From the NCBI GenBank assembly GCA_966212355.1, contig CBIHRB010000008.1, positions 95,084 through 159,083 on the forward strand: a stretch of 64,000 nucleotides of DNA, written 5' to 3'. Below are positions 8,051 through 10,797 of the stretch, in pieces. The notes beneath the pieces are model-generated. The model worked only from the letters and a program-made list of their open reading frames with translations. It was not told the origin of the DNA and ran no database searches. The translations under genes were made by a program, and so were the position numbers. Every line of letters begins with the position of its first letter. Position 1 is the first letter of the stretch. The DNA is from an uncultured Mucilaginibacter sp. (lineage in GTDB: Bacteria; Bacteroidota; Bacteroidia; Sphingobacteriales; Sphingobacteriaceae).

Positions 8051-8695
8051 ATGATTTTCATCCTCAATAAAACCGATACCATTGCCAACCAGTTTCTGGC
8101 CGAATTACGGGATGCCGTTATTCAGCAGGATAAGGCACGTTTCAGGCGAAACCAGGAAAAGTTAGGAGCCGTATTGGCTTATGAGCTGAGCAAATCATTA
8201 CATTACGAAACCAAAGAAATTCAAACCCCCTTAGGTACAGCCAGTGTTAATATGCCGGCCGATGAACCGGTGCTGGGTATTATATTGCGGGCAGGGCTCC
8301 CTTTTCACCAGGGTTTTATGCAGTTTTTCGACCGGTCACCTTCTGCATTTATCACAGCCTATCGCAAGGTGAAACGTAACGGCAGCTTTTTGATCCAGGT
8401 TGATCATATCTCAACCCCAAACCTTGATGACAAGATCTTTATTTTGTGTGATACGATGCTGGCCACCGGGCAAAGTATAGTATCTGTTTGTAAGGAATTG
8501 ATGGCGCAGTATAAAATAAAGGAACTACACATTGCCGCGGTAATTGCCAGCACCGAAGGGGTGGCGCATGTTAAAGCAAACCTGCCAAAGGCCAAGCTGT
8601 GGCTCTGCGCGGTGGATGATGAGATGACCAGCAAAGCCTATATCGTGCCTGGTTTGGGCGATGCGGGGGATTTGGCTTTTGGGGAAAAAGTGTAG
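8051..8695 (+). CDS. upp: Uracil phosphoribosyltransferase
   Basis: ILRAG, PRPP-binding DTMLATGQS and YIVPGLGDAGD motifs. Confidence 0.95.
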   Translation: MIFILNKTDTIANQFLAELRDAVIQQDKARFRRNQEKLGAVLAYELSKSLHYETKEIQTPLGTASVNMPADEPVLGIILRAGLPFHQGFMQFFDRSPSAFITAYRKVKRNGSFLIQVDHISTPNLDDKIFILCDTMLATGQSIVSVCKELMAQYKIKELHIAAVIASTEGVAHVKANLPKAKLWLCAVDDEMTSKAYIVPGLGDAGDLAFGEKV

Positions 8696-8698
8696 TTT

Positions 8699-8897
8699 GA
8701 TTTCGGATGTCGAATGTTCGATTTGGGATTTGTTTTGATTTCGAATTTCGGAAGTTCGATTTCGGATTTAGTAATTAAGATTTTCTAATTTTGAGTTTTC
8801 GATTTTTGAATCAAGGAATAAAACAATTTCGAAATCGAAAATCCGAAATCCGACATGAAATGATTAATTCCGAAATCGAACATCCGAAATCCGACAT
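8699..8897. repeat. Heptamer (GATTTCG / CGAAATC) tandem arrays in inverted arrangement (family D)
   Basis: Left arrays 8699-8731 and 8737-8769; right inverted arrays 8826-8856 and 8867-8897. Confidence 0.85.
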
Positions 8898-9588
8898 AAA
8901 GTATAAACACATCTTCTTTGATCTCGATCATACTATCTGGGATTTCGATAAAAATGCAGAGGAGGCCCTGCATGAGCTGTATGTTATTCACCAGCTTGGT
9001 GAAATAGGGCTGCAATCGGCCGAGCTGTTCATCGAAACGTATACCCGCAACAATCACCGCCTCTGGGCGCAGTATCATATCGGCGAGATCTCCAAAGATG
9101 AATTACGCGAGGCCCGTTTCAAATCAACCTTTACTGATCTTGGCCTTCACCCCGATCTGATGCCCGTTGATTTTGAGGATGCTTACGTAAAACTTTGCCC
9201 CACCAAAACCAACTTGTTTCCGCATGCGCACGAAACATTGCAATACCTGCAATCAAAATATACCCTGCACCTCATCTCGAACGGGTTTAAAGATTCAACG
9301 CGGATAAAAATAGCAGGAACCGATCTTGCCAAATATTTTCAGAACATTATTATCTCCGAAGATGTGGGTGTTAACAAGCCGGACAAAGCCATATTTCAAC
9401 ATGCACTTGACCTGGCCGGGGCATCAAAAGCCGAAAGCGTAATGATAGGAGACAGTATTGAAGCTGATATCCGCGGGGCGCTTAATTTTGGAATGGATGC
9501 GATTTATTTTAATCCTTTTAATGCGGAAAAACCTCAGGATGTAACAGTGCAGGTTGCTCATTTAAAAGAGTTAACTTTAATTTTATGA
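8860..9588 (+). CDS. yjjG: YjjG family noncanonical pyrimidine nucleotidase (HAD superfamily)
   Basis: DLDHT motif I, GVNKPD and MIGDSIEADI. ATG 8860 chosen; the TTG at 8791 reads through repeat sequence. Confidence 0.9.
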   Translation: MINSEIEHPKSDIKYKHIFFDLDHTIWDFDKNAEEALHELYVIHQLGEIGLQSAELFIETYTRNNHRLWAQYHIGEISKDELREARFKSTFTDLGLHPDLMPVDFEDAYVKLCPTKTNLFPHAHETLQYLQSKYTLHLISNGFKDSTRIKIAGTDLAKYFQNIIISEDVGVNKPDKAIFQHALDLAGASKAESVMIGDSIEADIRGALNFGMDAIYFNPFNAEKPQDVTVQVAHLKELTLIL

Positions 9589-9634
9589 GTATTATCTGCT
9601 ATTAATACAAACGATTATTTGTTTAAATTTGTTT

Positions 9635-9862
9635 ATGAAACAACGCACATATCGAATATTGCTTACCCCGGAAGAAGAAGGTGGATTTAGTGTTTCAGTT
9701 CCTGCATTACCAGGATGTTTTACACAGGGCGAAACGATTGAGGAAGCCATTGAAATGGCAAAGGAGGCTATTGCATTATATGTGGAAACATTAGAGGAAG
9801 AAGGTGAGCCTGTTCCTGATGATAGCCGTAGTCTTGAATACTCTTTAACATTCGCCTTGTAG
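9635..9862 (+). CDS. hicB: HicB family antitoxin (short form, no obvious C-terminal DNA-binding domain)
   Basis: GGFSVSVPALPGCFTQGETIEEAIEMAKEAI motif; TAAATTTG -7 box at 9624-9631. Confidence 0.92.
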   Translation: MKQRTYRILLTPEEEGGFSVSVPALPGCFTQGETIEEAIEMAKEAIALYVETLEEEGEPVPDDSRSLEYSLTFAL

Positions 9863-9871
9863 TTCAATCAA

Positions 9872-10072
9872 ATGAAGTCTTATACTCCTAAGGAGATTGT
9901 TGCTGTTTTATTAGCGCATGGGTTTGAGCTTGCGCGTACCAAAGGAAGCCATCAGATATTTGTAAACCATACAAATGGTAAGAAGACTGTGGTACCAATG
10001 CATTCGAAGGAATTGAAAAAAGGGACATTACATGCAATACTTAAGCAGGCAGGTATCGATCTGAAAGATTAA
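9872..10072 (+). CDS. hicA: HicA family toxin (mRNA interferase)
   Basis: GF...RTKGSHQIF, VVPMH and GTLHAILKQAG motifs. Confidence 0.93.
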   Translation: MKSYTPKEIVAVLLAHGFELARTKGSHQIFVNHTNGKKTVVPMHSKELKKGTLHAILKQAGIDLKD

Positions 10073-10082
10073 CTTTACTTTT

Positions 10083-10616
10083 ATGAGTATCGCCAAAGAA
10101 CGTAAAGCTATTGATGCAGCCCTTGATGAATACCGCAAACAACTGGATGTTATCCCCGATGAGTTGTTTGATGTTACACCGCAGGATGGCGGCTGGTCGT
10201 TTGCCGAGGTTTACAGCCATATTATGCAGGCTACGCTGGGTTCATCAATCGCGCTTGAACGTTGTACCCACGGCAATTGCGAGCCAACTAAAAAAGGCAT
10301 TAATTGGGAAGGCCGGATCTTGCTGTTGTTAGGTAAATTTCCACCGGTTAAAACAACAGTCCCCAATGCGGTAAGCGATAAAATGGCTGCCAATAAGATC
10401 AGTAAGGAAGATGCCAAAAACCTGATCATCAAATGCCGCAAACGGATTGAAACTACTATGCCACTCATTGCCGAATCATCGCCGGCTAACAGATACAAGC
10501 ACCCGCGTATGGGAATGCTTAATGCCAGGCAATGGTTTAAATTTATCCGCATCCATTTACAGCACCACTTGAAACAACTTAACAGGATCAAAAATAAATT
10601 TAATACAGCAAAGTAA
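10083..10616 (+). CDS. DinB family protein (DinB_2-like)
   Basis: GGWSFAEVYSH N-terminus and HPRMGMLNARQW...HLQHH C-terminus. Confidence 0.85.
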   Translation: MSIAKERKAIDAALDEYRKQLDVIPDELFDVTPQDGGWSFAEVYSHIMQATLGSSIALERCTHGNCEPTKKGINWEGRILLLLGKFPPVKTTVPNAVSDKMAANKISKEDAKNLIIKCRKRIETTMPLIAESSPANRYKHPRMGMLNARQWFKFIRIHLQHHLKQLNRIKNKFNTAK

Positions 10617-10686
10617 CCTTTTATATTTAATGTAGTCTTAACAGTAGGATAATGTTAAATTTCAGACATTTGTAAAAATCTTTGTG

Positions 10687-10797
10687 ATGAATTTTGAGTA
10701 TGCTTATTTGGTAGTTATAGGGTTGCTGATCCTGGTCGGCTGCTTCTATGCAAGTCCATATGAATTGACTGTTAACGAAGATGAGGACGACGAGTAA
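10687..10797 (+). CDS. Candidate 36-aa small membrane protein MNFEYAYLVVIGLLILVGCFYASPYELTVNEDEDDE
   Basis: Translated by hand (below the ORF-track cut-off): one TM helix plus acidic tail; near-consensus AATCTTTG just upstream. Confidence 0.5.
   Translation: MNFEYAYLVVIGLLILVGCFYASPYELTVNEDEDDE

Follow-up and report, generated by a model that had tools for sequence, protein, structure and literature searches.

A hicBA toxin–antitoxin cassette bounded by a duplicated yjjG stop/dinB start junction, and the fates of that junction across Mucilaginibacter

We analyzed a 64-kb stretch of DNA from an uncultured Mucilaginibacter sp. (hereafter the window; all window coordinates are 1-based on it), focusing our attention on a small hicBA toxin–antitoxin (TA) cassette found between yjjG, which encodes a pyrimidine 5'-nucleotidase, and a gene of the DinB_2 superfamily, called dinB here (Table 1). 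The hicB and hicA genes share one orientation and one operon, with 9 nt from the end of hicB to the hicA ATG. On either side of the cassette lie two 22-bp copies of the junction formed by the yjjG stop and the dinB start, which are direct in orientation, identical at 21 of 22 positions and 498 bp apart from start to start. Both host genes are left intact, as had been stated in the first-pass annotation of this DNA, which also described the duplication.

Table 1. Features of the yjjG–hicBA–dinB locus in the window.
Feature	Position	Strand	Description
yjjG, YjjG-family HAD pyrimidine 5'-nucleotidase	8863–9588	+	TIGR02254 211 bits (cutoff 159.9); Pfam Hydrolase/HAD_2
Left junction copy, TTAACTTTAATTTTATGAGTAT	9571–9592	+	Last 5 yjjG codons and stop, dead dinB ATG and next 5 nt
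Dead mini open reading frame, ATG AGT ATT ATC TGC TAT TAA	9585–9605	+	Relic of the dinB start region, read directly
TAAATTTG box, predicted Bacteroidota -7-type promoter	9624–9631	+	3 nt 5' of the hicB ATG
hicB, short HicB antitoxin, 75 aa	9635–9862	+	PF15919 62 bits, profile positions 1–62 of 123
hicA, HicA toxin, 66 aa, GSH motif retained	9872–10072	+	PF07927 75.5 bits; 1WHZ E=1.9e-8, 5YRZ
Right junction copy, TTAACTTTACTTTTATGAGTAT	10069–10090	+	14 nt of former yjjG tail (now dinB leader), working dinB ATG and next 5 nt
TAACTTTA element, predicted dinB leader or -7-like box	10070–10077	+	-13 of the dinB ATG
dinB, DinB_2-superfamily gene (DinB/YfiT-like metalloenzyme fold)	10083–10616	+	PF12867 43 bits; DUF1569

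The duplication is not a chance match. The two copies are the sole two matches to the 22-mers in the window at up to three mismatches, where 100 shuffles gave an expectation of 0, and direct pairs identical at 21 or more of 22 positions within 1 kb numbered two in the whole window and none in 20 first-order Markov random sequences. The contents assigned earlier to the copies were found in place, as the left one holds the yjjG TGA (9586–9588) and a dead ATG, and the right one the hicA TAA (10070–10072) and the working dinB ATG (10083). The single substitution, an A at 9580, lies in the left copy, where it differs from the right copy and from all empty alleles of the clade (alleles lacking an insert), while the right copy agrees at every position with the sequence that ends yjjG and starts dinB in the empty alleles of the closest relatives. 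Relics matching the dead mini open reading frame (ORF), namely TAAGTATTG, ATGAGTTT and ATGAGTTAC, were found in loci L015, L090 and L088. An extension of the repeat to the left into AAAGA(G), with one indel, is indeed present, but AAAGA in the right copy consists of the last codons of hicA itself (..L K D *), which are kept in all orthologues, those free of the duplication included, and thus represents microhomology. Likewise, the description of the cassette as AT-rich is right in direction, yet the effect is mild (38.7% GC against 43.1% for the window).

Relatives were surveyed with one genome per species, yielding 80 loci (L001–L080), nearly all from Mucilaginibacter and the rest from metagenome-derived Bacteroidota/Sphingobacteriales. 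An exact ATGA overlap of yjjG and the DinB_2 gene was observed at 33 of the 80 loci, including the closest relatives of the window (L002–L010), in which the junction reads ...AAAGAGTTAACTTTACTTTTATGAGTATCGCC, corresponding to the window minus one repeat copy and the 476 bp between the copies. Moreover, contigs of two isolate organisms, B and C, skip exactly 498 bp, from 9570/71 to 10069/70. For organism B (runs X13 and X14), identity to the window amounts to 95.6% over yjjG and 97.9% over dinB, and the differences are evenly spread through yjjG and spare its last 58 nt. The overlap predicted to return upon removal of one copy and the intervening 476 bp thus occurs in 33 species, as well as in the 498-bp skips of two isolate organisms. 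Not all relatives carry hicBA, and the empty locus matches the predicted junction, the two points on which the first-pass annotation had staked its proposal. Exact-protein look-ups for strain-level variants returned two short contigs, both with hicA.

In the empty state, a segment of about 36 bp has a double use, as it encodes the YjjG C-terminus and stop and is also the leader and start of dinB. In every empty allele the final nine codons of yjjG are held fixed in nucleotide sequence, even at synonymous sites (CAT TTA AAA GAG YTA ACT TTA ... TGA), and the motif TA[AC]CTTTA is found exactly 13 nt before the dinB ATG in 32 of the 33 empty loci. In the window this element, TAACTTTA, is present in the dinB leader and again inside the yjjG tail (9572–9579). 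It also occurs as non-coding sequence upstream of dinB (-11 to -14) in 13 of 39 non-empty loci belonging to several clades, where 0.005 occurrences per 30 nt would be expected from the background, and is retained in most metagenome loci too. Bacteroidota promoters differ from those of the sigma-70 type; the element resembles the Bacteroidota -7 box (TAnnTTTG) or an A/T-rich translation leader, either of which is a predicted function, and dinB, like hicB, may give a leaderless mRNA. As one stretch serves both genes, an insertion that spares both must duplicate it. The yjjG tail drifts in a number of occupied or otherwise non-empty loci (L011, L014–L016, L026, L040, L056 and L063), and this drift, together with the substitution confined to the left copy and the identity of the right copy with empty alleles, is consistent with a separate constraint acting on each copy.

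We then turned to the original length of the duplication. Comparison of the left and right copies within loci fails mostly, as the left copy has drifted, and right copies were compared with empty alleles instead. They reach 27 nt upstream of the dinB ATG in L064 (21/27) and L056 (22/27), 25 nt in L026 (24/25) and L040 (25/25), and 22 nt in L077 (21/22); on the downstream side, L001 matches through +9, and L015 has AGTATTG on both sides. Since right copies reach -27 and matches run to +9, the original duplication was at least about 36 bp long, spanning about -27 to +9/10 around the dinB ATG. In the window and in L001 the right copy starts exactly at the hicA stop, and the end of hicA (CTGAAAGATTAA), kept in all orthologues, resembles the yjjG tail (AAAGAGTTAAC). 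In the window lineage, a deletion at the microhomology AAAGA(G)TTAA probably removed the spacer and the left portion of the right copy, which are still present in L064. A derived right-copy variant, TACCTTTA, is common to one deep clade and several metagenome loci, and its sharing across that clade indicates that the duplication is old there too. In addition, right copies carry clade-specific variants of the local empty alleles, a match that is expected if empty alleles come from occupied ancestors by recombination between the copies, because the sequence downstream of the crossover derives from the right copy.

Across the genus, the junction was found in a series of states. The hicBA pair sits at the same junction and in the same orientation in ten other species (L001, L011, L015, L020, L025, L032, L054, L056, L063 and L064), and in about ten metagenome loci (L081, L082, L084–L087, L091, L092, L094 and L154). 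The intact repeat is shared only by L001 (M. angelicae; 23/23 plus AAAGA). The other occupied species have a yjjG that now ends in TAA or TAG, a drifted left copy and a right copy that is either truncated or missing, with repeats degraded or absent in eight of the ten. Five species and one metagenome contig keep a hicB-only remnant from which the toxin gene has been deleted (L017, L018, L037, L043, L078 and L125); these remnants retain only the first ~53 codons of hicB, and that of L037 is fused to the last hicA codons, LKD*. Further loci have yjjG|dinB spacers of 9–290 nt. In place of hicBA, one or two genes encoding proteins of ~275–300 aa with a signal peptide and the look of outer-membrane beta-barrel proteins (OMP) are found on the minus strand in L053 (4718–5626), L060 (4718–5542) and L066 (4718–6475), and L077 carries an unknown 138-aa ORF. 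Between yjjG and the hicB remnant of L078 (1069–1910) lie a HigB/RelE-like gene (92 aa) and an XRE-type gene (99 aa), both on the minus strand, and the junction seems to gather TA modules. Inserts of 200–240 nt resembling miniature inverted-repeat transposable elements (MITE), with long terminal inverted repeats (gtcatttcgacga...tcgtcgaaatgac), are located in L026 (4730–4972) and L040 (4691–4893), between a drifted yjjG tail and a perfect 25-nt relic tail before dinB. Extra ORFs stand beside hicBA in L056 and beside the remnant in L078. As remnants, spacers, MITE-like elements, OMP genes and a HigBA-like pair all occur there, the yjjG|dinB junction is a plastic hotspot, and all of its states are interleaved on a tree of YjjG and the metallophosphoesterase encoded nearby.

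To place the cassette in time, its divergence was compared with that of the host genes. Copies of a cassette that hops would be expected to resemble each other more than their hosts do, which was not observed. Mean third-codon identity is 48% for hicB and 44% for hicA, as against 49% for yjjG, 43% for dinB and 52% for the metallophosphoesterase gene. In the window and L001, which form the closest occupied pair, hicB and hicA reach 69% and 77%, and the same three host genes 66%, 71% and 72%. The cassette and the flanks have mean Jukes–Cantor distances of 0.292 and 0.299, respectively, over 13 loci. Cassette and flank distances are correlated in a Mantel test (r=0.56, p=0.0004; r=0.76 for dinB against the flanks as positive control), and the neighbor-joining tree of the cassette recovers the host groups (window, L001),L011; (L032,L054); and (L025,L063). 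As the phylogeny is congruent with that of the flanks and divergence equals theirs, hicBA is old and vertically inherited, and we conclude that it has resided in the junction since before the sampled species diverged, the empty alleles being secondary. Recent horizontal transfer of the cassette was rejected on the same grounds, namely the match of third-position identities and Jukes–Cantor distances with the flanks and the congruent trees.

Overall, we consider it moderately probable that a single ancient insertion duplicated the junction, was inherited vertically, and was then repeatedly lost with precision or decayed imprecisely. According to this history, a type II hicB–hicA operon with its own predicted promoter box would have entered an ancestral gene pair with an ATGA overlap once, before the radiation of Mucilaginibacter, duplicating the junction, of which the 22-bp repeat would be the remainder. 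Selection would then have kept both copies, the left one as the coding sequence of the YjjG tail and the right one as the dinB leader. For as long as the copies stayed alike, precise deletion by general recombination or replication slippage could restore the ATGA overlap exactly; homologous recombination that swaps in an empty allele would lead to an identical outcome, and we infer that the empty alleles arose by repeat-mediated deletion rather than by such replacement. The clade of the window has repeats that are still intact and also the most empty alleles. Once the repeats had drifted, the cassette would be locked in, or would decay imprecisely with the toxin lost first. As for the founding event, a single-crossover (Campbell-type) integration of a circular DNA with a copy of the junction is a tentative proposal, held with low confidence; it is put forward because it is a generic route to a long direct duplication, and at least 36 bp is far beyond the target duplication of a transposase.

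Several points weigh against this history. It needs many independent precise losses, about seven in the clade of the window and at least 15 genus-wide, and a TA pair that functions should, by post-segregational killing, counter its own deletion. Some empty alleles are sister to species without usable repeats (L012/L011 and L024/L017), so that those of L012 and L024 need an earlier loss or an allele replacement. No excision joints were seen in occupied samples among Logan contigs at 2–6x depth, a search that covered assembled contigs only. Moreover, the cassette genes are short and their synonymous sites saturated, and congruence is resolved only for the closer pairs.

The explanation that survives best beside it, which we nevertheless regard as unlikely, is recurrent gain, in which the empty ATGA junction is the vertical backbone and homologous recombination within the conserved flanking sequence passes the occupied allele from one congener to another. 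Plain exchange through the flanks would only carry along an existing duplication; in a variant of this explanation, homology-facilitated illegitimate recombination is anchored in yjjG and joined on the right at microhomology, each duplication being the by-product of a separate import. The alternative cargo of the hotspot (OMP genes, the HigBA-like pair, the 138-aa ORF and MITE-like elements) fits recurrent gain, as do the length of the right copy, which varies by lineage (14, 22, 25 and 27 nt), the microhomology AAAGA(G)TTAA at the right join of the window, and the right copy of L040, which is identical at 25/25 positions to the functional yjjG tail of a sister species, whereas the tail of L040 itself differs at 9/27. 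Moreover, such behavior has been documented for Neisseria under the concept of the minimal mobile element (PMC1797815). Against it stands the phylogeny of the cassette, which follows that of the host, and the TACCTTTA right copy, whose spread across a deep clade favors one old duplication there.

The sequence around the junction bears on recurrent gain in both directions. In a comparison of the window (8300–9590) with L003, L004 and L006, yjjG and the region upstream of it show 86–94% identity, being three to four times more divergent than dinB and the region downstream (96–100%; dinB 97–100%), whereas the genus-wide trend is the opposite, with dinB evolving faster than yjjG. The pattern points to a recombination boundary at the junction or close to it among the closest relatives of the window, and this local excess of yjjG divergence is a point in favor of recurrent gain. 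The higher divergence of yjjG holds equally among the empty relatives themselves, and no foreign tract lies beside the cassette when the window is set against organism B. A foreign recombination tract in the yjjG of the window was thus rejected, as the empty relatives are equally divergent from each other and the differences to organism B are evenly spread. Homology-facilitated illegitimate recombination was further tested by looking for import tracts in L040 and L026, and none was visible at that divergence.

Somewhat less probable still, and bearing on the origin of the duplication only, is the possibility that the repeats are the scar of a larger, integrase-bearing element that entered the yjjG 3' end, with a replacement junction in its attP (as in islands that target tRNA genes), and decayed to hicBA. 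Site-specific integration typically yields direct duplications of this kind, in which at least 36 bp of a gene 3' end are repeated, a length far in excess of the target-site duplication made by a transposase. TA modules are also often carried by integrative elements and plasmids (PMC7167474). A short-hicB/hicA pair is also carried by a 4.9-kb mobilizable plasmid of Bacteroidota (61% HicB identity), and extra ORFs accompany the locus in L056 and L078. Nevertheless, neither an integrase nor a large element was found at this site in the 80 genomes and about 20 metagenome contigs (roughly 100 loci), the largest insert being 1.8 kb; beyond the promoter, hicB and hicA, nothing in the cassette is conserved between lineages; and the other cargo of the junction is unrelated to mobile-element functions.

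The plasmid pair, on a Marivirga replicon and with short hicB followed by hicA, was the only plasmid relative, and there was no phage match. The Marivirga pair indicates that within the phylum this architecture is used as a module of plasmids, and it offers a weak lead to a circular donor.

The first-pass annotation had raised both a decayed larger element and an att-like cassette of about 0.5 kb mobilized in trans. The latter, in which a non-autonomous cassette enters the same site repeatedly, in different species, by means of a recombinase supplied by the host or by another element, with the 22-bp junction as attB, attL and attR, is highly improbable by our assessment. In the window and in L001 the cassette is indeed flanked by perfect or near-perfect direct repeats, empty sites are exact, distribution in the genus is patchy, and the junction-like left ends at L090, L088 and L083/L045 can be read as a travelling att site; yet the cassette tree is congruent with that of the host at equal divergence, most repeats have been lost, no integrase is present at the ~100 loci, the right edge of the repeat coincides with the conserved stop region of hicA, and the repeat lacks the architecture of a recombinase site, its only palindrome being the 8-nt AGTTAACT of the left copy, which is not kept in the right one. 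Marginally weaker still is the notion that the yjjG tail/dinB leader is a true recombination site at which a host-encoded recombinase excises and re-inserts the recombinase-less hicBA cassette, which, if true, would make this a trans-mobilized TA cassette in Bacteroidota and a concrete answer to the question of how such modules integrate into operons.

The cassette also differs from several known classes of mobile element. As stated in the first-pass annotation, it encodes no recombinase, and none is found within ~8 kb on either side, which together with its own conserved TAAATTTG box separates it from the promoterless cassettes of integrons; in addition, no attC-like imperfect palindrome or inverted repeat was found at the cassette boundaries, where the hicA stop is directly followed by the dinB leader. 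Insertion sequences, transposons and MITE are characterized by terminal inverted repeats, none of which was found at the cassette, and by duplications of 2–14 bp, as against 22 bp now and at least 36 bp once. The repeats are direct and in the same orientation, unlike the 28-bp XerC/XerD imperfect palindromes of Xer/dif (pdif) modules. With integrative elements the cassette shares the direct repeats of the target that bound the insert, and neither a cognate integrase at the ~100 loci nor repeated integration, nor excision among the assembled contigs of occupied samples, was found.

Close copies of hicBA, with HicB identities of 78–92%, were also found in other contexts, namely upstream of yjjG (L083 and L045), next to an Hsp20 gene (L090) and after ahcY (L093 and L104), while in L088 and L089 the pair lies behind a different upstream gene but still before dinB. 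The first-pass annotation had suggested looking for the same hicBA with different flanking duplications, and none of these close copies shows a new one. At L090, L088 and L083/L045 a relic of the yjjG tail/ATGAGT is found to the left of the hicB promoter. As junction relics accompany hicB, these loci derive from the yjjG|dinB arrangement by rearrangement, and the relics are unlike the traces that a cassette making fresh target duplications would leave.

In L083 (250–1650) and L045 (2750–4700), hicB lies upstream of a complete yjjG and is accompanied by hicA in the former and by an XRE gene on the opposite strand in the latter; the relic yjjG tail (AAAAAGAGGTAACTTTGATATTGT) stands to the left of hicB with no dinB after it, and uvrB is adjacent as in the window. 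These two loci are a local rearrangement of the same neighborhood. A scan of the ORF-poor region upstream of hicBA in L090 against Rfam returned nothing.

Regarding the genes themselves, yjjG orthologues were identified in 80 Mucilaginibacter genomes, in most of which dinB orthologues lie downstream; the start codon of yjjG in the window is uncertain (8791, 8857 or 8863). The dinB of this locus does not encode DNA polymerase IV; its product belongs to the DinB_2 superfamily (PF12867). HicB matches residues ~3–70 of solved HicB structures (138–148 aa) and the 67-aa TTHA1756, and consists of the toxin-binding N-terminal domain (partial RNase H-like) alone, without a ribbon-helix-helix (RHH) or helix-turn-helix (HTH) DNA-binding domain. 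In HicA, KGSHQIF aligns with KGGHRLY of 1WHZ, which includes the conserved catalytic histidine of the HicA domain. The promoter box attributed to the cassette is there, and is conserved as T(A/G)TAAATTTG in all orthologous cassettes; its function is predicted, and its placement 3 nt before the ATG suggests that the hicB mRNA may be leaderless. Across the genus, amino-acid identity is 84–99% for HicB and 77–89% for HicA while synonymous/third positions are saturated, and both genes are under purifying selection, since amino acids are kept despite saturated silent sites. Purifying selection is the sole support, and an indirect one, for the predicted toxicity of HicA and its neutralization by HicB. 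Separately, a soil-metagenome contig from run X5 is ~98% identical to 8865–9984 and diverges inside hicA (TAATAAATTTTGAATATATG...), which may correspond to a truncated-toxin variant.

The neighborhood is of a housekeeping kind, with uvrB and genes for MarR, GNAT and uracil phosphoribosyltransferase (UPRTase) on one side, and genes for a metallophosphoesterase and a glycosyltransferase together with coaX on the other. Between the DinB_2 and metallophosphoesterase genes, a 37-aa ORF (10684–10797) encodes a hydrophobic helix followed by an acidic tail (...NEDEDDE). In the UPRTase|yjjG intergenic region (8696–8897), two opposed arrays of 7-nt units, ATTTCGA ~10x at 8738–8811 and CGAAATC ~9x at 8830–8894, form a large imperfect palindrome that extends into yjjG at its annotated 5' end. 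Numerous unrelated contigs from isolate runs match 8863–8900 with loose ends on both sides, pointing to a dispersed family resembling repetitive extragenic palindromes (REP) or MITE, and REP/MITE-like sequence akin to 8696–8897 fills the yjjG|dinB gap in L032, L054, L043, L047 and L076.

Set beside known systems, the module as such is a HicBA of the usual type, its HicB being short and devoid of a DNA-binding domain. It shares with the HicAB/HicBA family (6HPB, 6G26, 4P78, 5YRZ and 1WHZ/2YZT) the HicA fold with its His motif, the toxin-binding domain of HicB and the adjacent, co-oriented pair. The antitoxin gene comes first, whereas in hicAB of E. coli the toxin gene does, and the 75-aa HicB resembles TTHA1756 of T. 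thermophilus in having neither an RHH nor an HTH domain, so that any autoregulation must work differently.

Among integrative elements, genomic islands that target tRNA genes and the NBU1-type elements of Bacteroides duplicate the 3' end of the gene into which they insert. They resemble the locus described here in that the insert lies between direct repeats, of which the left one supplies the end of the target gene and the right one is a relic that does not code, and in that precise excision restores the empty site. The hicBA locus differs from them in that no integrase is present, the insert measures 0.5 kb, neither excision nor repeated integration was seen, and the relic on the right serves as the functional leader and start of the next gene. 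The minimal mobile elements of Neisseria (Saunders & Snyder 2002, as cited in PMC1797815) resemble the yjjG|dinB locus in their conserved flanks, in the alternative short cassettes found at a syntenic site and in the lack of dedicated recombination machinery. As they are presented in that account, such elements are exchanged by transformation and flank homology and have discordant phylogenies, whereas here the cassette tree follows the host and exchange was undetected.

The closest parallels are the chromosomal type II TA modules that occupy intercistronic sites of E. coli operons, i.e., mazEF (relA–mazG), yafNO (dinB–yafP) and ccdO157 (folA–apaH) (PMC7167474; PMC3184786, citing Mine et al. 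2009). A review describes the mechanism by which TA modules move and integrate into genomes as unelucidated, and states that they are often intercistronic in operons that work fully without them (PMC7167474). Like hicBA here, the E. coli modules are found between conserved housekeeping genes, in an operon that is undisturbed in relatives lacking the TA module, with no recombinase, at a plastic site with REP-like or other inserts, and with a series of decay in which the toxin goes first, decay being shown by ccdO157. Unlike in those cases, the host genes here overlap (ATGA), the insert is bounded by a recognizable duplication of the overlap, a footprint that goes without mention in what PMC7167474 and PMC3184786 relate of the E. 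coli modules, and the cassette has co-diverged with its host across a whole genus. No new kind of mobile element comes to light at this locus; its modest novelty lies in the preserved footprint of a duplicated, overlapping stop/start junction, the functional reason for it and the genus-wide series of its fates. Altogether, the natural series that it offers, from intact and drifted repeats through toxin-deleted remnants and replaced cargo to precisely restored empty junctions, provides a worked example of the entry of TA modules into operons and a system in which the repeat-mediated loss of an addiction module can be measured.

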